Origin: a virus
Virus record (IMG/VR): IMGVR_UViG_3300020045_012645
Location: 1 to 64,000 of that record
Length of the DNA stretch: 64,000 nt
Direction: 5' to 3' (one strand)
Made by a program: the position numbers and the translations under genes. Each line of letters begins with the position of its first letter. The stretch's first letter is position 1. Of this stretch, positions 1,304-63,259 are shown piece after piece. Under the pieces are notes generated by a model. The model was not told the DNA's origin. It worked only from the letters and a program-made list of their open reading frames with translations, and searched no databases.

Positions 1304-1588
1304 ATTATTTTCCTTTTAACAATTTTATTTATTTAACAACTCTACTCTGGTACTTATGACAATTTATATGTGTATATCTTCTGAGATACAAGATACTCAC
1401 TTTCTTTCCATTCTATGTATTGATTCTCAATCCATATACTTTTATTTTTTTCTAATCTACTTACTGAATGTTGTTCTATAAAAGTTTTAGCAATTCCAAA
1501 GAAAGCTAATAGTCTTATTTTAAATGGTACTCCAAACTTTGTAAGTTTTATATTGTTTACTTTTTGGCATTATCTCTGGCTCCCTTGG

Positions 1589-1795
1589 TTAATACCTACT
1601 TGTTCTTGATTTATGAATATCGAATCTTGTAATTACATCTATAGATTCTATTTCATCTAACTGTACTTTTATATCAGCAATTGTTGATATAGATGCTTTG
1701 AATGGTTCAACAATTACTCTGGTACTACATAATAGTTCTAACTGTTTTTGATGATATGCTACTGTTCTAGCATCCAATGGTTTTATGTTTGTCAT
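1589..1795 (-). CDS. Hypothetical early protein
   Basis: ORF with AAGGA RBS in the early operon. Confidence 0.6.
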   Translation of the reverse strand: MTNIKPLDARTVAYHQKQLELLCSTRVIVEPFKASISTIADIKVQLDEIESIDVITRFDIHKSRTSRY

Positions 1796-1850
1796 CCAAA
1801 ATCCTTTTATATCTTATTTTTACTTTTAAGTCGAAACCAACTCCTAAGAG

Positions 1851-2153
1851 TTAGTTTCTAATTTGTGCTACGATAATTTCGATAGCTTGTTCTTGACTAA
1901 GTCCTGCCTCAACTAATGTTGATACAAGTACTAATTTTTGTTTGATAATCATTTCATCTAGTTGTAGATTTAATGCATTCATACCTTTTCTGAAAGCTTT
2001 TACTAATTCAGATGTACCTTCAGTTATTTCAGAGATTATTTCTGTTGTGTCTTGAAACACACCTTTTGATGTTTGCCAAATGCTTTTGTCGTTCTCTGCT
2101 TTACTCATTAGGTCGGCAAAGCTATATGTTTCTTTTACTACTGGTGCTGACAT
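1851..2153 (-). CDS. Hypothetical early helical protein (possible paralog of 3200-3424)
   Basis: AAGGA RBS; weak similarity FADLMSK..IWQT vs MASLFSK..VRQT. Confidence 0.7.
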   Translation of the reverse strand: MSAPVVKETYSFADLMSKAENDKSIWQTSKGVFQDTTEIISEITEGTSELVKAFRKGMNALNLQLDEMIIKQKLVLVSTLVEAGLSQEQAIEIIVAQIRN

Positions 2154-2254
2154 TTTATTTTCCTTTATGTCTTGGTTTATTGTTGGCTCTATACTAGAGA
2201 TTCCTTCGTCCGATAAAGCTATTAGCTATTTAGCTCTATAACTTTGTTATGTTG

Positions 2255-2338
2255 TTATCTGTTTACCATTGAGTTTATAGATTTACATTCTTCTAGTGTT
2301 GAACATAATGTTCCATCTATTGCTATGTAGTATGACAT
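2255..2338 (-). CDS. 27-aa early peptide (MSYYIAIDGTLCSTLEECKSINSMVNR)
   Basis: Read manually; AAGGAAAG RBS upstream. Confidence 0.45.
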   Translation of the reverse strand: MSYYIAIDGTLCSTLEECKSINSMVNR

Positions 2339-2359
2339 TGTATCTTTCCTTTGATGTTC

Positions 2360-2411
2360 TATGTAGTACCAGAGAAGAGTAATTTAATACTTAATTATCT
2401 GGTACTACATA
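2360..2411. repeat. Inverted pair of CTGGTACT motif (14-bp arms)
   Basis: tatgtagtaccaga ... tctggtactacata. Confidence 0.9.
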
Positions 2412-2450
2412 TTGTGGTTATTTTTATATCTTTTATTGAAACTTTATTTG

Positions 2451-2474
2451 CAAGGAGAGGTTGAAGTCTCCTTG
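2451..2474 (-). terminator. Stem-loop after early gene
   Basis: caaggaga/tctccttg 8-bp stem just downstream of the 2484 stop; weak U tract. Confidence 0.45.
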
Positions 2475-2483
2475 AAGTTTTGA

Positions 2484-2777
2484 TTACGCACCTAATTTTG
2501 CAAATCTTGAAGCGATGCTATCTGTTGTAACTACTGGTCTATCCGCTTGTTCATCGGCACTCATGAATGAATGATGTATTCCAACTTCAACTAATTTGTT
2601 CAAGTAGAACTCACCTTCAGCTTTGTTAGCTTTTAAGAAACTGATGTTTCCAAACCAAATTGGTTGACCACCCTCAATAGTTGGTTCATCATAGATTTTG
2701 AAAGTTACAAATTCTGCTTGTTTAGCTCCACCTAATTTTGCTCCAGATGCTGGTGCTACTAATTTTAATTCTGACAT
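2484..2777 (-). CDS. Early protein, positional candidate for N4 gp2-like ssDNA-binding RNAP II activator
   Basis: Start reassigned to MSELK (AAGGA RBS); second early gene; aromatic beta-rich core; function inferred from position only. Confidence 0.55.
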   Translation of the reverse strand: MSELKLVAPASGAKLGGAKQAEFVTFKIYDEPTIEGGQPIWFGNISFLKANKAEGEFYLNKLVEVGIHHSFMSADEQADRPVVTTDSIASRFAKLGA

Positions 2778-2838
2778 TTTATGTCCTTTTTTATGAGTAA
2801 GATATATCAAACTTTTCAATTTAAAATTTCAAATTTTG

Positions 2839-2859
2839 ATACTCGAAAGACTAGCATAG
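2839..2859 (-). promoter_or_regulatory. Candidate virion-RNAP hairpin promoter (copy 2)
   Basis: atactcgaaagactagcatag, identical to 3479-3499; template-strand CTA-GCA-TAG triloop hairpin. Confidence 0.65.
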
Positions 2860-3199
2860 CCAGATCAGTAACCAATCAGAAATCGAAGGAGGTACGACTG
2901 GTACCAACAAGAGAGAGTTGGACACAAGCCGTTAGGCAAAGAGTACCCAAGGAAGCTGGAACATTAGTAGAACTAGAACTAAGCTGACAGGCTGAGTGAT
3001 ATATAACTGGTACTTATGATATGCACCTATAGTTATCTTGTAAGTGAAGCAATGTGAAGTAATATATATTGGGATAAGAGATGTGAAGCACAGATAAGAA
3101 TGAGTAGAAGCCTATAAAGACTTCTTAAATTGTTTGCCTCTTAATGAAGCACCATAACGATATACACAAGACAATCGAAGTTGTCTGTCTGAGAAGAAC

Positions 3200-3424
3200 T
3201 TAAGCTTTTGCACTATACTTGTCCATAAGTCTTTGTCTTGATTCTTGCTTCATATCTATAAGTTCATATCTAGCTAGTTCTATAACATCTGCTACTGCTT
3301 TAGCTGATTGAGAGATAGTATTAGCTACATCTCCAACTGTTTGTCTAACACCTGAACGCTCTGATACTGATTGGATGTCTTTACTGAATAGAGAAGCCAT
3401 GTCGATATTGTTTGTTGTTGCCAT
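3200..3424 (-). CDS. First early protein (MATTNNIDM...)
   Basis: Start reassigned using AAGGA RBS; lies downstream of promoter repeat. Confidence 0.7.
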   Translation of the reverse strand: MATTNNIDMASLFSKDIQSVSERSGVRQTVGDVANTISQSAKAVADVIELARYELIDMKQESRQRLMDKYSAKA

Positions 3425-3478
3425 AGGAAAATCCTTGTTTATGATAAAAGATATATATGTCAATAACCACAAAGACAT

Positions 3479-3499
3479 ATACTCGAAAGACTAGCATAG
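3479..3499 (-). promoter_or_regulatory. Candidate virion-RNAP hairpin promoter (copy 1)
   Basis: 21-nt exact repeat about 55-60 nt upstream of two early genes. Confidence 0.65.
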
Positions 3500-3844
3500 G
3501 TTACAAGAGGTACGATTGTAACAAGAAGTAGGATAGATATGCAGTACTCGTTGAGGTTGGTACATGTTCCACTAGAGCAGAAGTGAAGCAAGAATAAAAA
3601 GGGTACCAACCAAGAGTACCAAGTACCTAGGGGGTATGATTTGAATTTGTAGGCTGTGGGAGTAGAAGCTACACTGTACATAAAATATATTTTTTTTCTC
3701 AGAATTAAACCTTAAACTAAACTTAAGAACTATGCTCATCTATACATAAAATATAAAAAATTTGTTCATACCTTCCTTAATTCTACCTTAAACTACACTA
3801 CACTATATTCCCTATGTACTCTATATATAAATAGGTAATATAAA

Positions 3845-3885
3845 TCAATCGGTCAGCCTAAATAGTCAATCGGTCTATAGACCGA
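3845..3885. repeat. TCAATCGGTC direct repeats and perfect 16-bp palindrome TCGGTCTATAGACCGA
   Basis: Repeats at 3845 and 3866; palindrome 3870-3885; further AATCGGTC at 3972. Confidence 0.8.
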
Positions 3886-3965
3886 AATTTTACTGTTTTT
3901 TAGTGCTCTGAATACGTTAACGACGGTAGTTAGATATTCGTTTTCGCTGTTTTTAATAGTTGCTC

Positions 3966-3994
3966 TTGACAAATCGGTCAGAACTATATATAAT
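3966..3994 (+). promoter_or_regulatory. Canonical sigma70 promoter of the ParB-like gene
   Basis: TTGACA-17 nt-TATAAT; spacer contains AATCGGTC. Confidence 0.8.
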
Positions 3995-4020
3995 TACAAA
4001 ACTAAAATAAGGACAGCAAC

Positions 4021-4767
4021 ATGAAATTTACTGAACCAAAATATTACAGCATAGATGAACTATCAATTCATCCAGAGGCTAATGCTACACCAATAATGAC
4101 ATTGGAACAATATAATGCTCTAAAGCTAGACATTGAAAAGAATGGACAAATAGATCCAGTTATTTTGTTTAGAGGAAAGATAGTTGATGGTAGACATAGA
4201 TACAAAATACTGTCTGAACTTTTATACAAAACAATATCAGGAATCAGTATGCCAAACAATTCAACACTTACTGAAATAAAATCACTTGTTAAAAGTAAAG
4301 AAACTCATAGACATCAAACACCTACTCAACTTGCTATATATGCATATAGACAAATGATTAAACATAATGAAGATCAAAAGAACAAAGATAAGTATATGAC
4401 TCAATCAGATGCTGCTAAAGAATTTGGAGTTGCAGTAAAACAAATTGGTAGAACAGCAAGAATAGATACAAAACTTTTAAGACCTGATATATTAGATAGT
4501 CTATTTGATGGAAACAAATTTAACATTGGAACAATGCATAGACCATTATTAACAGACAGTCTTCAATCAGTAATAAATTACCTTGACAAGATAAGCGCTG
4601 AACAATCAACTGTATTATCAGATATAGTATTTGAAGAACAACTAACAGAAGAAGACAATCTTGTTGTAGCAAAGATAATGAACATAGCACGAGATCAAAA
4701 AAGAATTGTTAGAGAAGCATTATCTAAAAAACTATATGCTGAACTAAATGACTTACCAGATGAATAA
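4021..4767 (+). CDS. ParB/Srx N-terminal domain protein with HTH
   Basis: LKLDIEKNGQIDPVILFRGKIVDGRHRY (ParB box); MTQSDAAKEFGVAVKQIGR HTH. Confidence 0.85.
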   Translation: MKFTEPKYYSIDELSIHPEANATPIMTLEQYNALKLDIEKNGQIDPVILFRGKIVDGRHRYKILSELLYKTISGISMPNNSTLTEIKSLVKSKETHRHQTPTQLAIYAYRQMIKHNEDQKNKDKYMTQSDAAKEFGVAVKQIGRTARIDTKLLRPDILDSLFDGNKFNIGTMHRPLLTDSLQSVINYLDKISAEQSTVLSDIVFEEQLTEEDNLVVAKIMNIARDQKRIVREALSKKLYAELNDLPDE

Positions 4768-4911
4768 ACATAATCAGTATAAGAGCTGGTACTCATCAGT
4801 GTAGCTAGAGCGAAGACGAAGTAGCTGCGACAGCAGCAATGAGGATGAGTCTCTAAGCGGAACTGATTATCTAACTACAAATAACAATACCAAACTATAG
4901 GAGCCAGAGAA

Positions 4912-5295
4912 ATGAAGAATGTTGTTAGAATATATAACTCAAATATTACACTAGTTGAAAAAGTATATCTATGCTATGGAAGAAAAGCATATGATAAGTT
5001 CTGTAAGAAAAGATTTAAAACACAAGAGAGCCAGATTATAACTAAAGGTGGTGTTACATCTCTATGGGATAAACATAATGGAAGTTTTGAATGTGCTATT
5101 GGTGTATTGAAAATAGACAATGTTATTCAGCTAAAAGGATTGGTAGTACACGAGATTACTCATGCTACAGATTTTATCATGAGACATAATGATTTAACTG
5201 ATATGGAATTCAGAGCATATTGCAATCAAGCTATGTATCAAACAGCTATAGAATTTATAGACAAGATAGTTTCTAAAAAGAAGAAAGTAAAATAA
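4912..5295 (+). CDS. Hypothetical protein with HExxH zincin-like motif
   Basis: VVHEITHA...EFRAY. Confidence 0.7.
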   Translation: MKNVVRIYNSNITLVEKVYLCYGRKAYDKFCKKRFKTQESQIITKGGVTSLWDKHNGSFECAIGVLKIDNVIQLKGLVVHEITHATDFIMRHNDLTDMEFRAYCNQAMYQTAIEFIDKIVSKKKKVK

Positions 5296-5320
5296 ACGCC
5301 ATTGTATCTTACCAGTTATG

Positions 5321-5343
5321 TTTAAGTTATGTGTATGTATAAT
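5321..5343 (+). promoter_or_regulatory. Campylobacterota-type sigma70 promoter
   Basis: TTTAAG-N11-TATAAT; same spacing at 8351, 22291, 25478 and 48500(-). Confidence 0.65.
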
Positions 5344-5375
5344 ATGTGCATAAAATAAACATAATAGGAATTAAG

Positions 5376-5546
5376 ATGGTAAAAGAAGAAAAGATTAGGC
5401 TGAAGCCAATAAGACGAACAACATTATTAGATGATGTCACTATAAAGATATTAGAAGACTATGGAATGAATAAATCTGGTACTACAAATATAAGTAGTGC
5501 TATACGACATATGGCTAGAGATTTTGATAGCAGGAGTAAAAAATGA
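5376..5546 (+). CDS. Small ribbon-helix-helix-like DNA-binding protein
   Basis: RRTTLLDDVTIKILEDY...NISSAIRHMARDF pattern; AGGA RBS. Confidence 0.6.
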   Translation: MVKEEKIRLKPIRRTTLLDDVTIKILEDYGMNKSGTTNISSAIRHMARDFDSRSKK

Positions 5547-6346
5547 GTGAAACTATAGATGATAATAAACAACTAGAACTTATAAATAAAGGTGATTCGC
5601 CTACTTGTAAAAGTCAAAATATCACAAAGGAAAAACTACAGAAGTTTATGCCTAGAGGTACAAATGCTAAAGTAACAGATGAAATACTAGAGATAATTCA
5701 TAATATAGAAGATGATACTGGATTGAATCAATCATATGCTGAAGAACGAGTTATGAGTTGTATTCATTTAATGGGAAAGCAAGGTGTTACGTTAGAAAAG
5801 CTTGTTAATGCTGTTAAGTTCTGTACATTGAAACAACACATGACAAATAAGAAAGCATGGGCTATTACATTTCCTGATGAATATGATAGAATTGTAGCAA
5901 GAAATATGGAAGTAGATAGTCATGTATCTATGTTTAATTCTACATATTTAGTAATTGAAATAGACAAGATGATGATAGTACCATTTCATTTGTTGTACAA
6001 CAAGATAAAACATGAAGCTCTTGAGGTTCAAGTTAATTTAATGAGAGGAATTGGAGCTAATGATGATGATAGAGTTACTCCACATATTCAACATTTAGCA
6101 GCGAAGACTGTATCTGAAATACTTAAAAGTCCAGAAGAAAATAGTATTGAACTTAAAATTGGTGCTAGTGATGCTGTATTGGCTCAACAACAAGAACTTA
6201 ATGATCATCTTGCTGAGATTGTTGCTAATCAAAGAAAAGCTTTTCAGCAAGGAAAAGATGTATCTGAACTTCAAAGAATTCATGTTGCAAATAAAGATAG
6301 AAATTATGAAGAACCAGAAGACATAATCTATGATGATGAGGAATAG
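5543..6346 (+). CDS. N4 gp69-like protein (putative terminase small subunit)
   Basis: Immediately upstream of TerL as in N4; similar size. Confidence 0.6.
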   Translation: MSETIDDNKQLELINKGDSPTCKSQNITKEKLQKFMPRGTNAKVTDEILEIIHNIEDDTGLNQSYAEERVMSCIHLMGKQGVTLEKLVNAVKFCTLKQHMTNKKAWAITFPDEYDRIVARNMEVDSHVSMFNSTYLVIEIDKMMIVPFHLLYNKIKHEALEVQVNLMRGIGANDDDRVTPHIQHLAAKTVSEILKSPEENSIELKIGASDAVLAQQQELNDHLAEIVANQRKAFQQGKDVSELQRIHVANKDRNYEEPEDIIYDDEE

Positions 6347-6349
6347 AAT

Positions 6350-8281
6350 ATGCATATAAGTCCAGAAAAACTTGGAGAAGAATTATCCTTAATATATCCA
6401 CGAGGAATTGATCCTCACTGTGGATACAAAGTTGGAAGTGATGGAATAGTTATGGAAGCATTTGAAGATGGTAGAATTACTGTTGACAAGCTTCTTGATA
6501 ATATAGATTTAAAGTTAGATTGGTATGTACCATCTGACTTTGCTATTGAGTTTATTATATTCATTAGGCTTGTGTTGGGTGAAGAACCTGAAAATACATC
6601 TCCTAAAGCTCATTACTTTTTTATAGATTGTGTATTTCAACAACCTAATGTTAAACCATTTTTTATGGTTAGAAATATAGACTTTGAAGCGCTTAAAGAT
6701 AGAGTTGTAATTTTAGCTAGTCGTGAATTTAGTAAGTCAACTTTAGTTGCATATCTAATATTATATATGGCTGCTAAAGGACGAGTTCCTGGGTTTGGTA
6801 GAGTTAACTATGGATTGTATGTTGCAGACTCTATGCGTAATAATGTTGAAACTACAATGACTACAATCAAGAAAGTATATCAAGAAAGTAAATACTTAAA
6901 AGGTTTATTTGAAGATACAAGACTTATACAAACAGAAGTAAGTTTTATTAGAAAGCCTAGAACTAAAAAAGAAATGGAAGCATATGAATTAGCTGTTACG
7001 GTTGAAAAACTAAGACCAGAAGAAGTACCAGGTCGAATGAAGCGAACATTTACATTGGTTGGTATTGGAGCAAATACTGGTGGTAGGGGATCAAGAGATG
7101 GACTTGCCAGACCAGACTTTACAATATTTGATGATATTCTTCCTAGTGAAGCTGAAGCAAATAGTGATGCTATTTTATCAAAAGTTGAATCAACAATTGA
7201 ATCAGATATTTTACCAGGTATGAATAATAATGGAAACTTCTCAATTATGATTGGTACTCCATACTCAAAAAAAGATCCAGTATATAGAAGAATTGAACAG
7301 GGAACTTGGTTGCCAGTTGTGTTTCCACGAGGCAACAAACTACCTACTGATGAGAAAACATTTGTTAGTGTCTGGGAAGATAGACATAGTTACAAGAACT
7401 GTAGAAAAGATTATGTTAGAGCTATGAAAGCTAAAGAGATGGGAGATGGGTCCAAGATGCGTTCATTACTTCAAGAGCACTATTTGAGAATTAGTAGTGA
7501 TGAGGATAGAATGATAAGCGAATCAATGGTTCAATGGTATAGTAGAGTAGATATAGAAAAAAGAATTAGTCAATATAATTTATACATGACAACTGACTTT
7601 ACAACAACTGGTACTTCTGGTTCTGACATGAGTGGAATTGCTACCTGGGCAATGGGGCAAAACAATGATATATTTTTATTAGATTTATGTTTGCGAAGAC
7701 AAGAAATTGAAACTCAATATGATGAAGTATTTAGAATGGTAAACTACTGGACAAAAAATAATCCAAGGGGAGTAACAGTTGGTATAGAAGTTGATGGTCA
7801 ACAAAAGAGTCATATCTATTCACTAAAAGAAAAAATGATTAAAAGAAATGAATGGTTTACAATTGGAAAACAAAAGGGAGCAAAGCCTGGCTCTGAAGGT
7901 ATATTAAGTAGACTTGAAAAAGGAAACAAGCATTGGAGATTTAGAATGATGCTTCCATTGTTTCAAAATAAAAAGATTTGGTTTCCATATGAATTAGAAG
8001 ATACAAATGATATGAGAGAATTAATGGAACAAATCAAATATGCAACATATACTGGATTTGGAACTAAATGTGATGATGGAGCCGATTTGATATCACAACT
8101 TGGAATGCTAGATGTAATATATCCAATGAAGTCTATGTATGACGAAGATGGTCCTGAAGAATATAGATATAGTGCTGCAATAGATGGTGGAAAAACTGGA
8201 CCAAAAAGATCTCATGGAAGTTATTATAAAAGTTCACATAGTAAAGATAAAGAAGATAGTATGTATTCATTGTATAACTAG
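6350..8281 (+). CDS. terL: Terminase large subunit (N4 gp68-like)
   Basis: ASREFSKST Walker A variant, TIFDDI Walker B, IGTP coupling motif, nuclease MTTDF and DDGADLIS. Confidence 0.92.
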   Translation: MHISPEKLGEELSLIYPRGIDPHCGYKVGSDGIVMEAFEDGRITVDKLLDNIDLKLDWYVPSDFAIEFIIFIRLVLGEEPENTSPKAHYFFIDCVFQQPNVKPFFMVRNIDFEALKDRVVILASREFSKSTLVAYLILYMAAKGRVPGFGRVNYGLYVADSMRNNVETTMTTIKKVYQESKYLKGLFEDTRLIQTEVSFIRKPRTKKEMEAYELAVTVEKLRPEEVPGRMKRTFTLVGIGANTGGRGSRDGLARPDFTIFDDILPSEAEANSDAILSKVESTIESDILPGMNNNGNFSIMIGTPYSKKDPVYRRIEQGTWLPVVFPRGNKLPTDEKTFVSVWEDRHSYKNCRKDYVRAMKAKEMGDGSKMRSLLQEHYLRISSDEDRMISESMVQWYSRVDIEKRISQYNLYMTTDFTTTGTSGSDMSGIATWAMGQNNDIFLLDLCLRRQEIETQYDEVFRMVNYWTKNNPRGVTVGIEVDGQQKSHIYSLKEKMIKRNEWFTIGKQKGAKPGSEGILSRLEKGNKHWRFRMMLPLFQNKKIWFPYELEDTNDMRELMEQIKYATYTGFGTKCDDGADLISQLGMLDVIYPMKSMYDEDGPEEYRYSAAIDGGKTGPKRSHGSYYKSSHSKDKEDSMYSLYN

Positions 8282-8288
8282 TAACACA

Positions 8289-8349
8289 ATCTCTGGTACT
8301 CTTGATTGGATACAAAATTAAGTAACTATATACATGTAGTACCAGAGAT
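8289..8349. repeat. Inverted CTGGTACT pair after terL
   Basis: atctctggtact ... agtaccagagat. Confidence 0.9.
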
Positions 8350-8350
8350 G

Positions 8351-8373
8351 TTTAAGCAAATATTTTGTACAAT
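8351..8373 (+). promoter_or_regulatory. Sigma70-type promoter
   Basis: TTTAAG-N11-TACAAT. Confidence 0.55.
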
Positions 8374-8401
8374 ATAACAAAATTATAATAGGAGAATTCA
8401 T

Positions 8402-8809
8402 ATGACGTATGGTTCACTAAAAAGCTTAGTATCTGGATTATTGCTTGGTGATAATATGATACCAAAAGATGATGCAGTAATGAAAGCATTATTATCATAT
8501 GCATATAGTATGATTTCTGATAAAGCTGAAGCACTTCATTTATTAACTTTAGATAAAAAAGGTGACATAAATAGATTTGCTACTGGAGAATATCTAATGC
8601 GAAATCCAGAACTTCCAGAAGACGATAGTTCTGAACTTGACATAGATGAAGAGTTATGTTTTGTTACTGCTAGATATATTGCATCAATGCTTAGCAAGGA
8701 AAAAACTGCATTGCATCAACAATATGGAGATGATGCAATATTAAAATATAATGGAAAAGTTTATCAGATATTAGATAATTTAACAAAAGTACCAGAGGTT
8801 GTATTATGA
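8402..8809 (+). CDS. Putative virion adaptor protein
   Basis: Position after terL (N4 gp67 locus); AGGAG RBS. Confidence 0.5.
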   Translation: MTYGSLKSLVSGLLLGDNMIPKDDAVMKALLSYAYSMISDKAEALHLLTLDKKGDINRFATGEYLMRNPELPEDDSSELDIDEELCFVTARYIASMLSKEKTALHQQYGDDAILKYNGKVYQILDNLTKVPEVVL

Positions 8810-9153
8810 GTAGTATTGTAAGTAGATTTATAAAAACATGTGACGATTCTACTGTTCAGGAATGCACAACTGGAACAGAGAAGATAGCATATGCAATTGA
8901 TTCAATGCAAGAAGGAATTCCATATACAATAGATAAAAACATATTAGATGAAAATATATATGTATGGAATAAGAGTTTTATAGATAGAGTATTGCTTTCG
9001 TTTAGTACTACAATTATGCAATCATTTAGTAAAAAAGAAAAAGATTTATTTGATAGATATAGAAGTTTTATAATATATGAAGTTACAAATATTGTTGATG
9101 AAGATGTATTAAAGCTTGACGAATATATAGGAACATTAGGAGTTACTGCATGA
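8806..9153 (+). CDS. Hypothetical protein
   Basis: ATGA-coupled ORF. Confidence 0.65.
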   Translation: MSSIVSRFIKTCDDSTVQECTTGTEKIAYAIDSMQEGIPYTIDKNILDENIYVWNKSFIDRVLLSFSTTIMQSFSKKEKDLFDRYRSFIIYEVTNIVDEDVLKLDEYIGTLGVTA

Positions 9154-12100
9154 ATAGTTTTATAGAAAATGTAAACTACTTGGCTGGTTTAGATAATAAA
9201 TATGGAGATAGATGCGAGTTCTTAAAAACAAATTTATCGTTAAGAAATGTTCAAAATAATATAACTTTTAAAGCTAGTTATTTTGTATATGAAACTATGA
9301 GTATACAGTCAGTTGAGTATTCAATGTCTGGAGCTATATATTCTGATTTAAATGCAATATTTACTGAATTTAAAAATGTAGTTGATGCAACTGGATATTT
9401 TACCTCTGATTTTACATTATCAGATAATAACAATGGATTTTTAGTACATAGTATAGCATTTAATATTAATAGTATAAATACAAAAGTAAAATTATCTGAT
9501 ATAGAATTCACAGCAACTCAAACAGTTGGTGGATTACAAATATATCATTTACATGGAAATGTAATTAATAGTTTAAAAATTTTACCAACACTTGCACTAT
9601 TTGATCAATCAATATTAGATGGTGTTATAGCAGTTGGACAATATCCAGATGAAGTTGTAACTGTTTCCAATAATATTGGAAGTGTTGCTGTTGTTTCTAC
9701 TAATATTGCAAATATAAATAATGTTGGGAATAGCATAGCAAATGTTAATACAGTAGGTGTAAATATTTCTAACGTAAATACTACTGCTACTGATATAACA
9801 AATGTTAATTCAGTTGCTGGAAGTATTACAAATGTAAATACTGTATCAACAAATATTACTGATGTAAATACTGTTTCAGATAATATTTCAAATGTAAATT
9901 CTACTGGAAGTAATATATCAAATGTAAATATAGTTTCTACTAGTATTGCAAATGTTAATGCTGTTGGAACTAACATATTAGATGTTAATACAGTATCAAC
10001 AAATATTATTGATGTTGTTGCTGTTGGAGATAATATTGGAAATGTTGTAACCGTTAGTGGAAGTGTTAATAATATAAATACAATAGCACCTAGTATAGCA
10101 AACGTTGATTTAGTTGGTCCAGATATATCAAGTGTAGTAATCGTTGCAAATAATATTGGTGCTGTAGTTACAGATGCAAATAATATTGGAAATATAAATA
10201 TAGTTGCAAATGATTTAAGTTTGTCTGGATATTCAAATTTATTAGATGCTGGAAGTATAGTTGATAGTGTTATTTCTGATCCAGTTGGTATATCAGTTAT
10301 TGAAACAGTTGCAGAAAATATTGTAAATGTAAATAACACTGGTTCTAGTATTACTAATGTAAACACAGTTGGAAATAATATAACAAATGTAAATTTAGTA
10401 GCAACTCAAATTGTACCAAATTTGGCTGAGATTTTATTAGCAGATGATAACGCAGCAACTGCTACTATAAAAGCAGCAGAAGCTTTAGCTAGTGAAAATA
10501 AAGCACATAAGTGGGCTGATGAATTAGAAAATGTTCCAGTTGTTGGTACAATTGGATTAGATGATGAATATAGTGCATATCACTGGGCTAAGAAAGCAGA
10601 AGCTGCAGCAGGTGGAAGTATCACATTAGATAGTTTGTATGATGTTGATGCTACTGGTGTTTTAGATGGTGGAATATTAAGATATGATACTACAACAAGT
10701 ACGTGGGTTGATTATGATTTTAATAATAATCCTATATTAGGTTTGGATAAAACATATGCTGGATTAACTCTTGAGGGTCAAATAACTTGGAATAGTACCG
10801 AAGGTACAGCTAATTTAGGATTGCCAAGTGGAAGTACTCTGCAGATTGGACAAGAAAATATTAGAACAATTAGAAATTCAACTGCAATTACCATAGAAAA
10901 TGGAACATTATGTATGTTCGATGGAACAATTGGAAATAGTGGAAGAATAAAGGTTAAACCATTTACTGCTGGGTTCAATGAAGCAATGTATTTATATGGA
11001 GTAGCAACACAAGATATCATATCTGGTACTGATGGCATAATTACTATTGAAGGTAAAGTTAGAGGTATTGATACTACTGGGGCATCTGTAGGCGAAGTAT
11101 GGGCTGATGAAGATATATTGTATGCTAAACCAAACGATAACGGAATGATGACAAATGTTATGCCTGCAGATAATGAATTGAAATTGGTTGTTGCAACGGT
11201 AATTCATGCACATTCTACAAATGGAATATTAGAAATAAGATTTACTCCAATGAACGAGAATGCAATATATAATTTGTATTCAAATGCTGGAGATATTCTA
11301 GTTGGTACAGGTGAGCACTCTGCGTCAATATTGCAAAAAGGATTGCCAACTCAAGTATTGAGAGTTAAGGCTGACGGAAGCGGATTAGAGTTTTCTTCAC
11401 CATCTGCCGCAACTATAGGTACAGATACAACTTTATATTTAGATGCAACATCTGCGTTTTCAGATAATTTATCTTTATCTGGAATTCCTTCTATTTATTC
11501 TGAACAAACTAGTACTTCTACTATTTCTTCTGGAAGTGTTGGATTCTTAGAAAGATTTGTGTCTGCTCCTCTTGGAGTAAACACAATACCAGCTGGTACA
11601 TGGACATTTAATACATATGCATCAGTTGATAGTAGTGTTGGTATATCTAATATTATTATAAGAGTTAATAGAAGAATTGATAAACATGGGATGACTGCAA
11701 CGTTTACTGGCTCTGGACTAACTAGAACATTGACTGTTACAGGCGGAAATCCGTTTTATCCGTCTGATGCAACATCTAGTGTTTTGACGGCAACACTTAT
11801 TGAAACACCAACACAAACTGCATGGATCAATAGTTATATTTCTAGTAATCAGGTTGTAGTTACGGTTACTGATATTGGATATGTAAATGAGACAAACGTA
11901 TCTTTTAGTGGACTGTATTACTTGGTTTTATCTGATACATCTAGTGAACTTGCGGTTGGGGTAGATTTTTATCAAAATACAACAGTTTTTGGCGAGATTA
12001 TTGTTGATCCAGAAGACAGACTTGTTGTTGCATATTTTTGTCAAACAAGCAGTGTAAACAGAATAATTACGCTATACTACGGAGGAGAATCAAGATATAG

Positions 12101-12215: not shown

Positions 12216-12218
12216 TAC

Positions 12219-55312: not shown

Positions 55313-55314
55313 TT

Positions 55315-56340
55315 CTAAAAATCGTCGAAGTCGATAGAACCTTTTGAGTAGTTAACAACATTTCCTTCAAAGAAGTTTGTTCTTTGGTCATTGAAACTTG
55401 CATATCCATCAACCCATGGAATAGGGTGTTTCACTCCGTATTCTGGTTTATATCCAACTGCTGCAAGTCTTTTATCTGCAAGATATTGAATATATTGTTC
55501 GATGATTGAATCTGTAAATCCTAGAATTTGTCCTTTTGTGATATGCTTACCCCAATTTGATTCTAATTCTACTGCTTTTCTAAACATTTCTCTTACTAGT
55601 TTTTCAAGTCTTTCTGTAAATAGCTCTGGTCTTTCTTTTCTTACTGAATTAATCATGTTTTGGAAAAGTAATAGGTGAGTTACTTCATCCCTTTGTATGA
55701 ATTTAATCATTTGAGATGAACCTAGCATTTTTCCTGATTTACCAAGTGCATACATAGCTGCAAATCCTGCATGAAAGTATATACCTTCAAGAATTTGATT
55801 TGCAAATAATGCAAGAACCAATTTTTCATCTGTTATATCTCCAGCCAATTCACTATAAACAAGAGAAAGATATTTATTCTTCTTTAAGAGTACTGAATCT
55901 GTTTTCCATAAATTATAAATTTCATCTGTGTTTTCAGAAATAGACTCAACCATAACGGCATAAGATTTACTATGATTTGCTTCTTCATAAGATTGTCTAG
56001 ATAAACAAGCATTTATTTCAGGAGCTGTGATATATGGATTTATGTTGTCCATTAGATTATTTGTTTGTAAAGAATCCATAGACATTAAATTTGATAAAAC
56101 TAGATCATACATTCTTTTCTCTGGTTCTGTAAGATATTTATAATCTTTGGCATCCCCTGTCATTTGAACTTCTCTTGGAAACCAAGTATTAGCTTCCATT
56201 GTGTCCCAAAGATTTAATGCCCATTCATATTTCATTGTAGTAAAGTTTATCATACCATCTGGATTACCACCGAAAACCTTACGGTTTCCAGTAGTTTCAT
56301 TTGATTCTGTATTAAATACATTTTTTCTATTCATAATCAT
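55315..56340 (-). CDS. nrdB: Class Ia RNR beta subunit (Campylobacterota type)
   Basis: [35 protein letters not shown]. Confidence 0.95.
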
Positions 56341-58757
56341 TGGCAACCGCTGCATTCTAAGCTTCTATCTTCTACATCAATTTTAGCTTCAGGTGATTTA
56401 CTTCTTAGATAATAGTTTGATTTATTACCTAATTTCCAAGATAACATATAAATCTCATGTAGATCTTTACCTGTTACCTTAGATGGGTCAGCAAAAACAT
56501 TTAGAGATTGACCTTGATCAATCCATTTACCTCTAACTGCTGCAGCTCTAATAATATCTCTTTGATCTAATTCATAAGCTGGTTTATAGTATTGATATGT
56601 TTCTGAATTAAGATTTGGAACAACAACTGGAATTAATCCTGATAAGTTTTCTTCAAACCATTTTCTTTTATAACAAGGTTCAATTGCTTGAGTTGTACCT
56701 ACAAGAATAGAAATAGAACTTGTAGGAGCAATAGCCATTAAATAACCATTTCTGATACCAGTATTTTTAATTTTATGTCTTAATGCTTCCCAAAGAATAT
56801 ACATTGGATAATATTTTTTAAGTTTTGTAAGCATTAATGTTTCTTGATTTGCATGATCATGTGGCATAATACCTTTTGACCATTTAGAACCTTCAAAATC
56901 TGGATATGCACCTTTTTCAATAGCTAAATCTGCAGAAGCATTAATAGTGTTGAATGAAATTAATTCCATAACATCATTTATTAATTCTAAATGTTCTTGA
57001 GAACCAAAGTATATTTGTTTTTCTGCAAGCATTTGATGTTCACCCATAACTCCAAGACCAACTGCTCTTGATTTTAAGTTTGTAGCTTTTACTTTTCGTA
57101 AAGGATAGAAATTTAAATCAATAACATTATCAAGCATTCTAATAGCTATTGGAACAACTCTTTCAATGTCTTCTTTTGTGTTAATTCTTGAAAGATTTAC
57201 AGATGCTAAGTTACAAACAGCTGTATCTCCGTCTATTTTTTCTTTTTCAACGCAGAATACTTTTGATGTTACATCTGGAGCTAAATTTTCAGATTTCTTT
57301 AACACTATAGTATCAAGAGATGTAATTTTGTTAGCTTTTTTTGTTTTACTATTTTTTAGCAATACATCAACATTTTCTTCTGCTAATAGAAATTTATTTC
57401 CATTGTCAATCCAGATTTTAATTAAATATTTATCTGGTTTTGTATTTTGGAAAATCTCAGTACAAAGGTTACTTGATCTAATATGTCCAACATGAGAGTT
57501 TGGATTAGCTCTATTTGCTGTATCTTTGAAACATAAGAATGGAGAACCACTTTCAAAGTAACTTGTAAGAATTTTCTTCCATAAATCTTTTGCTTTAACT
57601 ACTTCTTTTCTCAAAGAATCATTTTTTTCAAAAGACTCATATTTTAATTTGAATTCATCTCCAAAACATTCAGATAATTCTTGTACTTCATATGGATCAA
57701 ACAATGTCCACATTCCATCTTCTAAAACTCTTTCCATAAACAAGTCAGAAATCCAAAGTGCAGGAAATAAATCATGTGCTCTTCTTCTATCTTCACCAGA
57801 GTTCTTTTTCAAGTCTAAAAAGTCATTTATGTCTAAATGCCAAGGTTCAAGATAAACAGCTATGGCACCCTTTCTTGTCCCGATTTGGTCATAACCAATA
57901 GCAATATCGTTAACAATTTTTAACTGAGGAACAACTCCACCAGCTGCATTTTTATTGTTATCAATAACTCCACCCATAGCTCTTACTTGATTCCAATCTT
58001 GACCAACACCACCACCGAATTTAGATAACATACCAAATTCTTTAAACATACCAAAGATTCCTTCAATATTATCAGGAGTTGAACCAATATAACAAGAAGA
58101 TAGTTGGTGTCTATTTGTTCTAGCATTCGATAAAGTCGGAGTTGCTAACATAACTTCAAATTTAGAAATTACATCATAAAACTCTTTTGCACATTGTTGT
58201 TTATTAACTTCATCTTGGGCTAAAAACATTGCTACACACATAAACATATGTTGAGGTAACTCAATAGTATTACCATTGTTATTTTTGATTAAATATCTAT
58301 CATATAAAGTTTTTATACCTAAGTAGTTAAATAAGAAGTCTCTCTCTGGTTCTATGTATGCATTAAGATCTTCTAAATCGTATCCATCTGATAATGTTGG
58401 AAATAATTTTCCTTCATTAGTTGCATACTCAATATAGTCTTTAATGTGTCCATACGGAGTTCCTTTTGTGCTACCAAGAATTTTTCCTACAGTATGATAT
58501 AAATCAAATAGAAAAAGTCTAGCACCAACAAAAGTCCAATTAGGAACATCTATATCAATTTTATCAACTGCAGTTTTAATTAATAGATGTTGAATATCAG
58601 CAGAACTCATACCATCTACAAATTGAATATGTGCATCAACTTCTAATTCAGATTGAGAAACTCCATCTAAATCTTTAGTTGCAGGAATTGTCATTTTTTG
58701 AATTTTTACAATATTTAATTCTTCAAGAGAATTAGATCTTTTTTTAATTCTAATCAT
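56337..58757 (-). CDS. nrdA: Class Ia RNR alpha subunit with ATP cone (Campylobacterota type)
   Basis: [39 protein letters not shown]-terminal CSGCQ. Confidence 0.96.
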
Positions 58758-59323
58758 TTAATTTCTCCTGCAGAAACAATTCCCCAGTCTTCCGCCAAAA
58801 TATCTGTCTGTGATGCTAACCAACCAGTAACTATAGAGCCAGTTGCAGATTTCATATTTATATTAGGCAATCTAGTGATAGTTCCAGTATCACCATTTTC
58901 AAATAATGAAGCTTCAATTCCATCTATGTGTGTAAAATTTAGATCATTTTCTGAATCTTTTGAAACACTACCTTTATTTAAATAAATAAACATACCTTTT
59001 CCATTCCATCCCCATCTAGATACGCAATGTCCAAGTTTTAAAGCTTCAACTGCCATTCCAAATGGAAAGTTTCCAGTTTCTCTAAATTCTAAAAATACTT
59101 GTTCTTTTGTAGACCAAGAAATATATCCTTCAGCGAAATCAGTATTTGGTTTTGCATTTGTAAGATTTTCAATCATGAAACCTTCGTCGTCACCATTTTC
59201 ATCAGATGGCAAATCCCAATTTCTAAGACTATTATATTCAAGTCTTGTCATTGGATATGCAACAACGAACTTAGAACCAAACAATGTTAATGTTTGTAAT
59301 GTTTTAAGTTTCTCTTTGTTCAT
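58754..59323 (-). CDS. DUF2829 / Tad2-like protein with extra N-terminal domain
   Basis: FGMAVEALKLG..VSRWGWNGKGMFI...WLASQTDILAEDW. Confidence 0.85.
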   Translation of the reverse strand: MNKEKLKTLQTLTLFGSKFVVAYPMTRLEYNSLRNWDLPSDENGDDEGFMIENLTNAKPNTDFAEGYISWSTKEQVFLEFRETGNFPFGMAVEALKLGHCVSRWGWNGKGMFIYLNKGSVSKDSENDLNFTHIDGIEASLFENGDTGTITRLPNINMKSATGSIVTGWLASQTDILAEDWGIVSAGEIK

Positions 59324-59326
59324 AGC

Positions 59327-59605
59327 TTATTTACCAGCTACAAAGTCTTTTAAAAGCTTGCCAGCTTTAAATTTAGCAACAGTTTTTGCTTCAACATTAA
59401 CAGTTCTATCAGTACCAGGTACAGTTGCTGTTCTAGCAGATCTTTCAGCAGTTGCGAATGTTCCAAATCCAACTAAAGCAACTTGCTCTTTTCTTGCTAA
59501 TGTTTCTGTAATTGTTTCTAATGTTGCATCTAATGCAGCTTTTGAATCTTTTTTTGTTAATCCTGATTTAGATGCGATTGCATCAATTAATTCATTTTTA
59601 TTCAT
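59327..59605 (-). CDS. hup: HU family DNA-binding protein
   Basis: MNKNELIDAIA, VGFGTF, KFKAGKLLKD. Confidence 0.95.
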   Translation of the reverse strand: MNKNELIDAIASKSGLTKKDSKAALDATLETITETLARKEQVALVGFGTFATAERSARTATVPGTDRTVNVEAKTVAKFKAGKLLKDFVAGK

Positions 59606-60781: not shown

Positions 60782-60917
60782 ATTATATATTCCTTTTTTT
60801 TCATCAATAGTATTATATAATTATAATTATTAATTTAAGCTTTATGTGTCCGTCTAGTTAAGTGCACTTTTTATATGGGAAATTACATGGTTTTATTATT
60901 TATAAACCAATACCCTA

Positions 60918-61466
60918 TTAAAAAGATTCAGCAGGTCCATCCTTTAGAGCACCTCTAATAGTCCTAAATGATTTTCCTGATATTTGTTCTGCATATTTTA
61001 CACATTGTTCTTTATCTTTTGTCAAATCTAAATCTTTTTTCCATTTATGTGGTGGAACTGTAAAAATATTAAGTCCGCAAAGTTCTGCTACTGCCAATAA
61101 TTTACCAAAATTTTGGTTAGTTGTTGAAGTAGAACTTGCTGAATTTCCAAATGACATAGCTGGAGATTCTAAAATAATAGCCACTTTCTCTGGTTCTAAA
61201 AATGTAAAAAATGTTCTTATATTATTTAGAGCCAGATTTATTTCGTATTTTGCAGCTGATATTTGAACTTTTTTTGCTTCACCTTTGTTTGGACCAGACT
61301 TTATAAATTGTTTTTTACCATTAAGTAAATCTAACTTATATCGTGCTGGTTTTGTTTCAACTTTTTTTATAGGCATTTCTATGCACTCTAGTAACTTACC
61401 ATTTTGAAAAATAGATAGTCCACCAGATAATCCAGGATCTACTGAAACAACTGTATTAAATTTCAT
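60918..61466 (-). CDS. RuvC-like Holliday junction resolvase (ends prematurely at AESF*)
   Basis: SVDPGLSGG, ILE, NFGKL, PHKWKK, KDGPAES. Confidence 0.85.
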   Translation of the reverse strand: MKFNTVVSVDPGLSGGLSIFQNGKLLECIEMPIKKVETKPARYKLDLLNGKKQFIKSGPNKGEAKKVQISAAKYEINLALNNIRTFFTFLEPEKVAIILESPAMSFGNSASSTSTTNQNFGKLLAVAELCGLNIFTVPPHKWKKDLDLTKDKEQCVKYAEQISGKSFRTIRGALKDGPAESF

Positions 61467-61476
61467 AGTATTACTA

Positions 61477-62151
61477 CTAGAAATTTAATTTTTCAGCAGC
61501 AGCTTTTGTTTCTTCAGATGATGCAGAAGTTGATGCAGCATTAGCATCTTTTTTTACATAACCTTTGTATGTAAAGATTCCATCTTTGTTTTTTTCAACT
61601 TTTGCTTGGAATTTTTCAATATCTTCATTTCCAGCGTGAGTTACACCTTCGATGTCATTTGAATCTCTGTATGCTTCACCTTCTGCTTTGTTTGAATCTT
61701 GTGAATGTCTAATTAAAGCTTTAACTGATTTGTCATTTAATCCTAATAAGAATACACCTTTACATTCAGCACCAAATGAGCTAACTTTAGTTTCAGCACC
61801 TTGTTTGATGTTTTCCATAGCAACATTTGCAGCAACAGATAATGATTTTAATCTAGCAACGAAACCTTCATTGATTTTACCTGGTTTGTCTGCAGCTTTT
61901 TCTTCATCTGTTTGTTTTAAGTTTTTACCAATATCATCTCTAAATGATAAAGTTCTTTCTTGGTCATTATGTTTTACAGAAATATTTACTTTTAACATTT
62001 CTCCACCAAATTTGTTTGTGTAAAGAATTACTTCTTTAATTTTTGCATCATATACTCCTGAAGGCATTACTTCGAATGCTTCTGCTACTGTTGATGACTT
62101 TGCTGCATCGAATGTTTCTTGACTAATTCCTAATGATTCTAAAATACTCAT
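61477..62151 (-). CDS. Single-stranded DNA-binding protein (putative)
   Basis: PSGVYDAKIKEV; low-complexity tail ending LNF; N4-like synteny ATPase-SSB-resolvase. Confidence 0.7.
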   Translation of the reverse strand: MSILESLGISQETFDAAKSSTVAEAFEVMPSGVYDAKIKEVILYTNKFGGEMLKVNISVKHNDQERTLSFRDDIGKNLKQTDEEKAADKPGKINEGFVARLKSLSVAANVAMENIKQGAETKVSSFGAECKGVFLLGLNDKSVKALIRHSQDSNKAEGEAYRDSNDIEGVTHAGNEDIEKFQAKVEKNKDGIFTYKGYVKKDANAASTSASSEETKAAAEKLNF

Positions 62152-62201
62152 TTTGTTTTTCCCTTAAATTTTAATTGGATTTTTGTTGAATTCTAATATG
62201 T

Positions 62202-62230
62202 AGTACCAGCTAATTTCTGGTACTCTTGAT
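62202..62230. repeat. Inverted CTGGTACT pair
   Basis: agtaccag ctaattt ctggtact cttgat. Confidence 0.9.
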
Positions 62231-62274
62231 TAAAAAAGGACTATAATTGTATCTGTAATTAACTTTTATATTTG

Positions 62275-62496
62275 TTACTTAGCTTCTTCTTCGTAACTAA
62301 TTGCTTCACCACAACAACCTATATCTACAGGCGCTTCTTGTACATTTTGCAATGCTGGCTCATCTGTTAAATCAACAGTTACTTCGATTCCATTTTTTTT
62401 ATTTGCAATTGTTAATTCTTCATTTTGGTTAAACTTTTGTTCTGCCCAAGCTTTTACAATTTCAGATAATTCTTGATTGTTTAATACTATTTTCAA
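62275..62496 (-). CDS. Hypothetical protein
   Basis: TTG start with AAGGA RBS. Confidence 0.65.
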   Translation of the reverse strand: MKIVLNNQELSEIVKAWAEQKFNQNEELTIANKKNGIEVTVDLTDEPALQNVQEAPVDIGCCGEAISYEEEAK

Positions 62497-62508
62497 ATTT
62501 TTTCCTTA

Positions 62509-63165
62509 TTATTTTATTCCGTAGTATGAGCAAATTGCATCATCTACTATTTTTAAATCGTTATCTATATACTCATCTTTTATCATATCTTCTGGTGTTT
62601 TATAAAAATCACGACCAGATGATTGTGTCTTAAATTTATATCCATCTTTAGTTTTTATTGCTCTAATCGAAACAGTAAGTAACGATGGAATATCAATTTT
62701 TTCTGTAATAAATTTACCACCTACTACTTTAATTATTTCATCTCCATTTGCATCCAAATCAATATGGTTCACTATATAAACTCTTACATCATCAGGAAGT
62801 GATTGTGCTGTCATAAGAAGATTATAATAGTTTAATGCACTATTCATAAATTTCTCATAGCCTTTTTCTTTTGCTGTGTCCATTGTTTCTTTAAGAAGTA
62901 AGTGAGTTGAATCATCTATGATTACAATTTTTTTACCATATTCTGGTAACCTTGACAGAACTGCATTGATTGTTGCATAATCTGTTGAATATATATAGTG
63001 TCCAGTTTTTGTTTCTGAATCCCATGCTTTTAATTCTCCTGCTCCAGGAAAAGAAAATGGTTTTCTATTTGGTCTTATTATAAATGTTTCATCCCAATTT
63101 AAGTTCTTAAAAGATCTTGTTTTTCCAGAACCAGATGGTCCAGCAATACTTGTTAAAATACTCAT
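62509..63165 (-). CDS. AAA/Sak4-like ATPase (ssDNA annealing)
   Basis: GPSGSGKT, IIDD, KGYEKF, YKTP, IDNDL. Confidence 0.85.
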   Translation of the reverse strand: MSILTSIAGPSGSGKTRSFKNLNWDETFIIRPNRKPFSFPGAGELKAWDSETKTGHYIYSTDYATINAVLSRLPEYGKKIVIIDDSTHLLLKETMDTAKEKGYEKFMNSALNYYNLLMTAQSLPDDVRVYIVNHIDLDANGDEIIKVVGGKFITEKIDIPSLLTVSIRAIKTKDGYKFKTQSSGRDFYKTPEDMIKDEYIDNDLKIVDDAICSYYGIK

Positions 63166-63259
63166 ATGCGTATTTCCTTTTTTTATATAAAATCATAGGA
63201 CTTACAAATTAGCTGGTACTCTTGAATAAGTACTTATTTGTGCCAATAATGCCAAGATG

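Follow-up and report, generated by a model that had tools for sequence, protein, structure and literature searches.

Several described systems depend on short DNA words scattered along a genome. The primase site of phage T7, TGGTC, gives the primer ACCA, and helical bundles beside archaeo-eukaryotic primase (AEP) domains read template words in pRN1 ORF904 (GTG) and RepB' (ssiA/ssiB). Chi (GCTGGTGG) is read by RecBCD and the FtsK-orienting polar sequences (KOPS, GGGNAGGG) by FtsK; guides of the KOPS type show a strand skew of more than 80%. The competence machinery reads the DNA uptake sequences (DUS) of Neisseriaceae and the uptake signal sequences (USS) of Pasteurellaceae. How does a word dispersed in phage genomes compare with these? 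The word described here, CTGGTACT (on the other strand AGTACCAG), was noticed in the virus genome IMG/VR record IMGVR_UViG_3300020045_012645, whose first 64,000 nucleotides are called the window below. It is one lineage's dialect of a word carried by most N4-like (Schitoviridae-type) genomes tested. Coliphage N4 has been a model phage for about fifty years, and no paper was found that notes a seven-letter word at about 110 places in its genome.

The window holds 61 exact copies of the word (38 on the plus strand and 23 on the minus strand, spanning 1347 to 63220), where dinucleotide shuffles give 0.74 +/- 0.84 and at most 4; an earlier note, made from the sequence alone, had counted about 60 by eye against one or two expected. 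The whole genome of 100,021 bp carries 106 copies, 66 plus and 40 minus, or about one per kb. CTGGTACT is the most enriched 8-mer of the genome by a wide margin, at 74 times the expectation from composition, and a T follows 91% of CTGGTAC heptamers. Counting its flanks, the word covers 13-16 nt and is asymmetric; its consensus then reads (A/C)T-CTGGTACT-NN-TGAT, or a version ending in ACAT, and is identical in sense-coding, antisense-coding and intergenic copies. Two variants are also enriched, CTGGTTCT (33 copies, about 23-fold) and CTGGCTCT (17 copies, about 29-fold); the TGAT-type extensions and the variants had both been pointed out in the earlier note. Non-coding DNA makes up 11% of the genome and contains 39 of the 106 copies (p = 3e-12), a 3.4-fold intergenic enrichment; in the window 24 of the 61 copies are intergenic, where about a third had been estimated. 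Intergenic copies lie anywhere from a 1-nt overlap with a stop codon to about 30 nt past the stop. Overall, site spacing is Poisson-like, with a coefficient of variation near 1.

A search of the literature on the word itself, on N4 middle promoters, on N4 replication and on over-represented words in Schitoviridae found no published description, in line with the statement in the earlier note that no such system was known for N4-like phages. The phi14:2 promoter paper contains no similar motif, and an exact 14-mer scan of viral contigs gave single chance matches only. Several copies in the early arm (genome positions 81871, 93132, 94920 and 98396) read AGTACCAG-ATAATG on the gene strand, with TCGGAT following 5-10 nt on, a possible composite early-gene signal built around the word.

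Is the word a by-product of codon choice? Synonymous-codon shuffles within each gene and codon-order shuffles were used. Genome-wide, coding copies number 36 sense and 31 antisense, compared with 5.0 +/- 2.2 and 7.0 +/- 2.1 after synonymous shuffling, and about 2 copies are expected from codon-order shuffles. Because the word survives synonymous shuffles, it is a DNA-level signal and not a codon artefact; the earlier note had held that preferred codons explain some coding copies but not the intergenic pairs, and the enrichment withstands the codon-preserving shuffle that it had proposed as a check. Selection works at the DNA level and has altered protein composition too: there are 25 SGT tripeptides where 6.7 are expected, and 8 copies of SGTD where the expectation is 0.4. 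Within genes the word takes the frames that cost least, xCT GGT ACT when it is sense and xxA GTA CCA Gxx when it is antisense. The coding sites of the window are as follows.

1719..59418, both strands: 37 coding copies in all.
5476, 7608, 11023, 14866, 20107, 20716, 22903, 25224, 32859, 33288, 34840, 35287, 35395, 36265, 38428, 40789, 41161, 43267, 45651, 52030 and 59411: sense copies, mostly in the frame xCT GGT ACT.
1719, 7024, 8788, 19179, 23849, 26757, 28030, 32310, 36467, 38177, 38453, 40511, 43804, 49327, 52365 and 53353: antisense copies, mostly in the frame xxA GTA CCA Gxx.
53361..59410: a 6-kb island without sites, the sole long site-free stretch (Poisson P = 0.0016).

One small correction concerns the site at 31772, which probably lies within the open reading frame (ORF) 31594-32145. 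The site-free island covers the anaerobic ribonucleotide reductase NrdD, the small and large subunits of class-I ribonucleotide reductase and a Tad2-like gene; we take it for an imported block into which the word has not yet spread. The cargo block (53385-59323) concerns nucleotide metabolism, and the radical-SAM activase of NrdD lies upstream at 52961-53398. The Tad2-like (anti-Thoeris) domain protein of the block is homologous to N4 gp49.

The genome has 29% GC and terminal repeats. Its major capsid protein, portal, terminase, gp57-like protein, part of the virion RNA polymerase (vRNAP), two RNAPII subunits, gp43-type primase and Sak4-like protein match N4/Schitoviridae proteins at 20-37% identity; judged by these matches, the virus is therefore a distant, enlarged N4-like phage, as the earlier note had taken it to be. 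A crAss-like identity, which genome size and GC content might suggest, was rejected because capsid, portal, primase and RNAPII all match proteins of the N4 type. The plus strand carries the late genes (4-47.4 kb) and the minus strand the early and middle genes (47.4-100 kb plus 1-3.7 kb). Compared with the usual N4 map, the record is reversed. The phage is apparently lytic. Wastewater sequencing runs held small shares, with only short contigs of 85-95% relatives plus five raw reads.

Relatives were located through the capsid protein and the primase; G000 denotes the analysed genome, and other G and L numbers the records and contigs compared with it. With the exception of L204, these relatives do not carry CTGGTACT, and each has an extreme word of its own. 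CTGGCTCT is the dialect of L127 (86% capsid identity), G002 and L195 to L201. CTGGCGCT, the dialect to which the octamer AGCGCCAG belongs, is that of L206 to L213, where 14.7 kb contain 18 copies and 0.05 are expected. G005 to G007, in which TGGTTCT is enriched, and L202 use CTGGTTCT, L205 uses GTGGTTCT, L216 to L220 use TTGGCTGC, and L223 uses TTGGATC. The complete 112-kb genome G004 has 143 copies of CTGGTTCC, of which 61 are sense and 70 antisense within genes, against 1.8 and 9.1 in synonymous shuffles. Coliphage N4 itself has 110 copies of CTGGTTC; of those within genes, 51 read sense and 51 antisense, where shuffles give 16.5 and 12.4. When 7-mers that beat synonymous shuffles were sought de novo, TGG-(T/C)-T words came out on top in N4, KP8, LUZ7, DSS3phi2, Axy10 and RHphN38. 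The TGG-core word is thus found in phages of Escherichia, Klebsiella, Pseudomonas, Achromobacter, Ruegeria and Rhizobium, that is, of gamma-, beta- and alphaproteobacteria. Enrichment in related phages had been suggested as a check, and the relatives carry variants as extreme as the original that differ from it by one or two letters.

The word family consists of an invariant TGG core, a lineage-specific triplet and, in most versions, a pyrimidine. Dialects differ by one or two letters between lineages, and in most N4-like genomes tested the density is about one copy per 0.6-1.3 kb on both strands. L204 (85% primase identity) has CTGGTACT twice in 2 kb, which places the CT-to-TA dialect switch between about 74% and 85% primase identity. 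It is likely that CTGGCTCT is the ancestor of CTGGTACT and that its 17 copies in G000 survive as relics. In the relatives the word is unenriched in intergenic DNA and mostly lacks flanking information. Within the closest sub-clade the third base after the 8-mer is informative: it is T in G000, while the CT dialect has A and the CG dialect has G. As controls, the ratio of word to shuffle was 0.8-1.2 in 118 unrelated viral contigs, and the top words of phage T7 are different ones.

Some contigs depart from the TGG pattern. L136 and L139, capsid relatives at 55% identity, have no TGG-type word; the palindrome TTAGCTAA is enriched about 20- to 28-fold instead, with 14 copies in 12 kb and 8 in 4.8 kb. 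The N4-like lineage of L240/L241 has an enriched word, TACAGGTA / CTACAGGT, in which AGG replaces TGG. Another word, TGGGTCA, which contains the T7 primase site GGGTC, is also above synonymous shuffles in N4 (41 against 10.7) and KP8 (32 against 12.6).

Are individual sites conserved? At 85% nucleotide identity, G006 and G007 agree fully in 73% of the windows that contain the word and in 45% of windows overall (p = 9e-6). When G000 is aligned with L127 or G002, at about 70-74% identity, no coding site coincides. Word density is maintained and individual positions are not, as with Chi, DUS or priming sites and unlike operators. In whole genomes the word favours the late-gene coding strand regardless of local gene direction and evenly along the genome (66:40 in G000, 69:41 in N4, 90:47 in G005 and 104:74 in KP8); the preference is weak or non-significant in G004 (81:62) and in LUZ7. 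Because the skew is absent from the loci that flank gp43, polarity is a moderate, non-universal trend.

Which protein reads the word? Only four kinds of nucleic-acid enzyme were found by BLASTP in most of the genomes compared, namely the gp43-type primase-helicase (7 of 8), terminase, RNAPII and vRNAP. The G000 proteins with homologues in most of these genomes are structural proteins, TerL, the gp69-like protein, vRNAP, RNAPII and the gp43/dns-type protein. The reader is probably phage-encoded and conserved across the family, and not a host Chi system: the word family spans unrelated hosts and the N4 word is unenriched in a sample of Escherichia coli DNA, which makes a host reader unlikely. 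The candidate genes of the window, including those named in the earlier note, are listed here.

63490..64000, minus strand: 3' part of the gp43/dns-type primase-helicase gene, the candidate reader (695 aa; the gene extends to genome position 65577).
155..1303, minus strand: N4-type RNAPII subunit, a rival family-wide candidate reader.
5543-6346, plus strand: gp69-like protein, a rival family-wide, packaging-related candidate.
6350-8281, plus strand: terminase large subunit, a rival family-wide, packaging-related candidate.
34644-43574 and 43604-47407, plus strand: two giant late ORFs of 2976 aa and 1267 aa, a rival candidate reader.
4021..4767, plus strand: ParB-like protein named in the earlier note.
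47448..48328, minus strand: two winged helix-turn-helix (wHTH) proteins named in the earlier note.

The partner RNAPII subunit is at genome positions 99006-99845. Of the two giant ORFs only the 1267-aa one matches the vRNAP family, aligning with the C-terminal third of N4 vRNAP; the 2976-aa ORF has a 23% match in G005 only, and a megablast search of the giant ORF against phages gave no match.

In N4, gp43 is described as an essential MCM-like superfamily 6 (SF6) helicase with a C-terminal AEP primase domain (PMC4889955). The protein encoded at 63490-65577 is a full-length orthologue of N4 gp43/dns (BLASTP 5e-26) and aligns from end to end with phrog_2135, the phage 'DNA primase' family; the domains of N4 gp43 are DUF3987 and PriCT_1. 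A profile search of PDB sequences with gp43 orthologues gave no match, and fold comparison was therefore used. In a structure model of the G000 orthologue (pLDDT 84.7), residues 1 to about 400 match MCM chains (Foldseek E from 5e-7) and residues 430-601 match the AEP domain of the cyanophage S-2L PrimPol (E 8.6e-5; Z 7.9). The same region matches the sequence-specific plasmid primase RepB' (Z 6.9), and a helical bundle follows it. Sequence and model together suggest that the genome encodes a primase that could read a template sequence.

Related proteins vary in architecture. In L241, at 3852-6048, an AEP primase (286 aa) and an MCM-like helicase (444 aa) are separate adjacent ORFs in the order primase-helicase (lineage L240/L241). 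Many close gp43 homologues, at 850-1025 aa, exceed the usual length of about 700 aa; their size suggests that sister lineages have inteins or other insertions in this protein.

We infer, tentatively and at somewhat less than an even chance, that CTGGTACT is the template or loading word of the family's gp43-type MCM-helicase/AEP-primase. The enzyme would start a primer, or load, at the word on a single-stranded template, and words on both strands would spread priming sites over both strands. The primer copied from CTGGTACT would be AGUACCAG, which starts with a purine and contains CCA. Intergenic DNA would be preferred because a long word costs least there, often with one copy per strand. The metagenomic dialects (CTGGTACT, CTGGCTCT, CTGGCGCT, CTGGTTCC, TTGGCTGC and TTGGATC) all end in T or C, and the N4 word ends in C; a dialect ending in a pyrimidine would give a primer that starts with a purine, a weak argument in which the start point is assumed. 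The best 7-mers of LUZ7 end in G. The pentamers of the T7 primase are enriched about 1.5-fold in T7 relative to synonymous shuffles. The spacing of the word is of the order of phage Okazaki fragments.

A number of points weigh against a gp43-type reader. The gp43-type gene co-occurs with every other family hallmark, so co-occurrence cannot single it out, and Z scores for the fold matches of its AEP domain are middling. The words that known primases recognise have 3-5 nt and are enriched only weakly; among primases there would be no precedent for a word of 8-13 nt with 74- to 360-fold enrichment. The gp43-bearing contigs L225 and L226 have no TGG word in about 6 kb. The strand preference of 60-65% in whole genomes is modest, the 27 loci flanking gp43 show no skew (151 top and 169 bottom), and no origin-like switch in orientation was seen. 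As to an excess on the lagging-strand template, what was found is a uniform one-strand preference of 60-65%, in whole genomes only. Moreover, priming does not specifically predict that close pairs should be strictly inverted or that intergenic singles should lie 19:2 on one strand.

If the word is indeed the start or loading site of gp43, no other known primase word would be as long or as strongly selected, and it would explain a large part of codon, and even amino-acid, choice across a phage family. A further proposal, which goes beyond priming and must be called unlikely, is that word and reader form a fast-evolving 'replicon identity' system, in which the replisome starts only on DNA of its own dialect and so marks self against host or co-infecting relatives. 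A dialect switch such as that from CTGGCTCT to CTGGTACT, with its 17 relics, would then rewrite about a hundred sites together with the reader, and switches would act as barriers to replication and recombination between lineages. Whatever the reader, the natural dialects offer a ready-made experiment on the joint change of a DNA-reading enzyme and about a hundred targets, since G000 adjoins the CTGGCTCT lineages and retains their word as relics. The word could also serve as a family-diagnostic signature for metagenomic contigs and as a design constraint for engineered N4-like therapeutic phages, and word-free islands could mark recent gene imports.

All ten neighbouring pairs less than 60 nt apart in the genome are inverted and none is direct, with gaps of 4-41 nt. 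The inverted pairs that the earlier note had listed are all present at the positions it gave, including a variant pair and one inside the 2976-aa ORF. Its list of singles that follow stops holds at 4786, 19043, 27035 and 34590; the copy at 1347 lies upstream of the start of a minus-strand gene. Pairs and intergenic singles of the window are these.

2365..2406: intergenic pair AGTACCAG-N26-CTGGTACT; a 12-bp stem is possible because both copies have the ACAT extension.
8293..8345: intergenic pair CTGGTACT-N37-AGTACCAG, beginning 11 nt past the stop of the terminase large subunit.
16121-16128 and 16139-16146: variant-dialect pair AGAACCAG-N10-CTGGTTCT, at the stop of ORF 15532-16122.
21607..21631: intergenic pair AGTACCAG-N9-CTGGTACT, downstream of the portal gene.
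26288..26323: intergenic pair AGTACCAG-N20-CTGGTACT, 16 nt past the stop of ORF 25531-26271.
38428..38460: pair CTGGTACT-N17-AGTACCAG, within the 2976-aa virion-protein ORF.
47423..47442: pair AGTACCAG-N4-CTGGTACT, between the convergent late and middle arms, with a 9-bp stem and without a T-tract.
48729..48785: intergenic pair AGTACCAG-N41-CTGGTACT.
50988..51022: intergenic pair CTGGTACT-N19-AGTACCAG.
62202..62224: intergenic pair AGTACCAG-N7-CTGGTACT.
1347..1354, plus strand: intergenic single, 43 nt upstream of the start of the minus-strand RNAPII-subunit gene.
3007..3014, plus strand: intergenic single in the early arm.
4786..4793, plus strand: intergenic single, 18 nt past the stop of the ParB-like gene.
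19043..19050, plus strand: intergenic single, 9 nt past a stop codon.
27035..27042, plus strand: intergenic single, 4 nt past a stop codon.
34590..34597, minus strand: intergenic single, 7 nt past a stop codon; one of two minus-oriented intergenic singles genome-wide.
63213..63220, plus strand: intergenic single, 47 nt upstream of the start of the Sak4-like gene.

Genome-wide, intergenic singles in G000 number 19 plus and 2 minus across both gene arms, and are thus sense in the late arm and antisense in the early/middle arm. This orientation, together with the preference for the late strand in G000, N4, G005 and KP8, would suit a polar guide or processivity signal for a one-way DNA motor, comparable to KOPS and FtsK and acting either in packaging by terminase (TerL and the gp69-like protein, both conserved in most genomes compared) or in genome entry with the left end first. 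Entry of the N4 genome is indeed directional and dependent on its RNA polymerases (PMC4496689). The skew is far below that of KOPS-type guides, however, about 40% of copies stand in the 'wrong' orientation and are nevertheless strongly enriched, and there is no skew at the gp43-flanking loci or in LUZ7. We know of no packaging motor that reads dispersed words, and a guide of this kind seems improbable, if still worth weighing. The T7-like phage RNA polymerases have a slimmer claim. Both RNAPII and vRNAP belong to the hallmark genes, and G000 has them; single-stranded DNA is a substrate of RNAPII, the word with its extension (ATCTGGT...) looks like ATCTGTT, the class II signal of T7, and intergenic copies extend from a 1-nt overlap with a stop codon to about 30 nt past it; the word might thus be a pause or stop signal like the T7 one, or a start site on single-stranded DNA. 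Yet sense copies in the minus-strand genes of G000 number 16 against about 2.6 expected and are enriched, not depleted (about 6-fold in early and middle genes of G000 and about 2-fold in those of N4), so that a stop signal would halt the phage's own transcripts. The orientation of intergenic singles tracks the genome and not the direction of transcription, and most copies are inside genes. In N4 the published RNAPII promoters are rich in AT between -7 and +2, those of the LUZ7 middle genes are GC hairpins, and neither kind looks like the word. On balance, a polymerase reader is rather unlikely.

The other alternatives are weaker still. The earlier note had raised a host-recognised, Chi-like signal, and a self-marker copied from the host and read by RecBCD or AddAB, or as an uptake or defence word, would account for the density, the two strands, the preferred frames, the inverted pairs at gene ends and the dialects, all of which resemble DUS/USS and Chi. 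The N4 word shares CTGGT with E. coli Chi and, by analogy with the latter, the preferred strand would be active against a nuclease that enters at the end injected first. The 50-kb sample of E. coli K-12, though, has 3 copies of CTGGTTC where 6.2 are expected, whereas true Chi is found there 14 times against 1.7, and the TGG-core word is found in phages of six host genera from Escherichia to Rhizobium, which have different Chi systems. A host-read marker therefore fails for N4 and the E. coli sample and is quite improbable in general. The earlier note had favoured a protein-binding site, and an asymmetric word of 13-16 nt with 3.4-fold intergenic enrichment and inverted pairs at variable spacing could be a double-stranded site for a lineage-specific binder (ParB-HTH, ribbon-helix-helix, wHTH or HU) that organises, loops or compacts the genome. 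Of the binders it named, the ParB-like protein (4021), a small ORF at 5346 and the wHTH proteins are not supported: BLASTP found no homologues of them in N4, KP8, LUZ7, DSS3phi2 or RHphN38, and the wHTH proteins, with one weak match in G005, are lineage-restricted, although every one of these genomes has the word family. Since the word of the relatives is also unenriched in intergenic DNA and its positions are unconserved between them, such a binder is very improbable. Its view that a terminator is the poorer fit is supported as far as canonical terminators go. The ten pairs do fold into stems of 8-12 bp (z-scores -2.9 to -6.6), and one of them lies between convergent arms, as hairpin terminators or RNA-processing sites at gene boundaries would if the other copies were by-products. 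No T-tract follows any pair, loops vary from 4 to 41 nt, and a terminator scan of 44-64 kb, which covers four pairs, made 5 terminator-like calls with no pair among them; 86 of the 106 copies are unpaired and 67 are coding, on either strand. That the paired copies are canonical intrinsic terminators is not supported, and the notion that this explains the word is hardly credible; termination or RNA processing may be a secondary use of the pairs. A phosphorothioate reading (GAAC/GTTC, CCA) and a Dcm/Vsr repair bias were dropped because the dialects break both motifs; repair bias also cannot give 70- to 360-fold enrichment.

Two other genes of the phage may be recorded. A small protein of the Phage_gp49_66 family (51528-51836) is 60% identical to N4 gp48 over 58 residues, compared with 36% for the capsid protein. 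The ThyX thymidylate synthase gene (genome positions 70611-72644; L165:10611-12644) is split by an intein with HNH and NUMOD3 endonuclease motifs.

How, then, does the word stand beside the known systems? Chi and KOPS are, like it, over-represented asymmetric 7-8-mers with a strand preference, which in their case is tied to a directional DNA process, and the letters CTGGT are common to Chi and the phage word. They differ in that the phage dialects track phage lineage and that the host Chi system is probably not the reader; the N4 word is not over-represented in the 50 kb of E. coli K-12, and the skew, about 60-65% (62% in G000 and 63% in N4), is absent in several lineages. The stoperators of cluster A mycobacteriophages, 13-bp asymmetric repressor sites, also come in dozens, many of them just past stops in short gaps. 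Theirs are oriented with transcription and silence the prophage, whereas the phage word ignores gene direction, its singles standing 19:2 across both arms, and is mostly coding. Nick sites of the T5/tf type occupy one strand only, unlike a word found on both (66 to 40). T7 class II signals would be avoided on the sense strand, where the word is enriched, and intrinsic terminators combine a GC-rich hairpin with a T-tract, of which the pairs share only the ability to fold.

DUS and USS are alike in density (about one per kb on both strands), in preferred frames, in inverted pairs at gene ends and in dialects of one or two letters. They saturate the chromosome of a competent host, whereas the phage word belongs to a lytic phage family and its N4 version does not saturate the host DNA sampled, that of E. 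coli. Primase words differ from it in other respects. The phage word runs to 7-8 nt, or at most 13 if flanks are counted; its enrichment is 12- to 360-fold, it alters proteins and changes between close lineages, and its priming role is the part that we infer; the T7 primase, moreover, is of the DnaG type and not AEP as in the candidate enzyme. Like them, the phage word is short and strand-specific, and a primase of a phage or plasmid would read it on a single-stranded template. Its sites lie on both strands, its core is TGG/CCA as in the T7 gp4 site 5'-(G/T)(G/T)GTC-3' (TGGTC giving pppACCA), and the candidate enzyme would join an AEP domain to a helical bundle, as do pRN1 ORF904 with its 5'-GTG-3' and RSF1010 RepB' with ssiA/ssiB.

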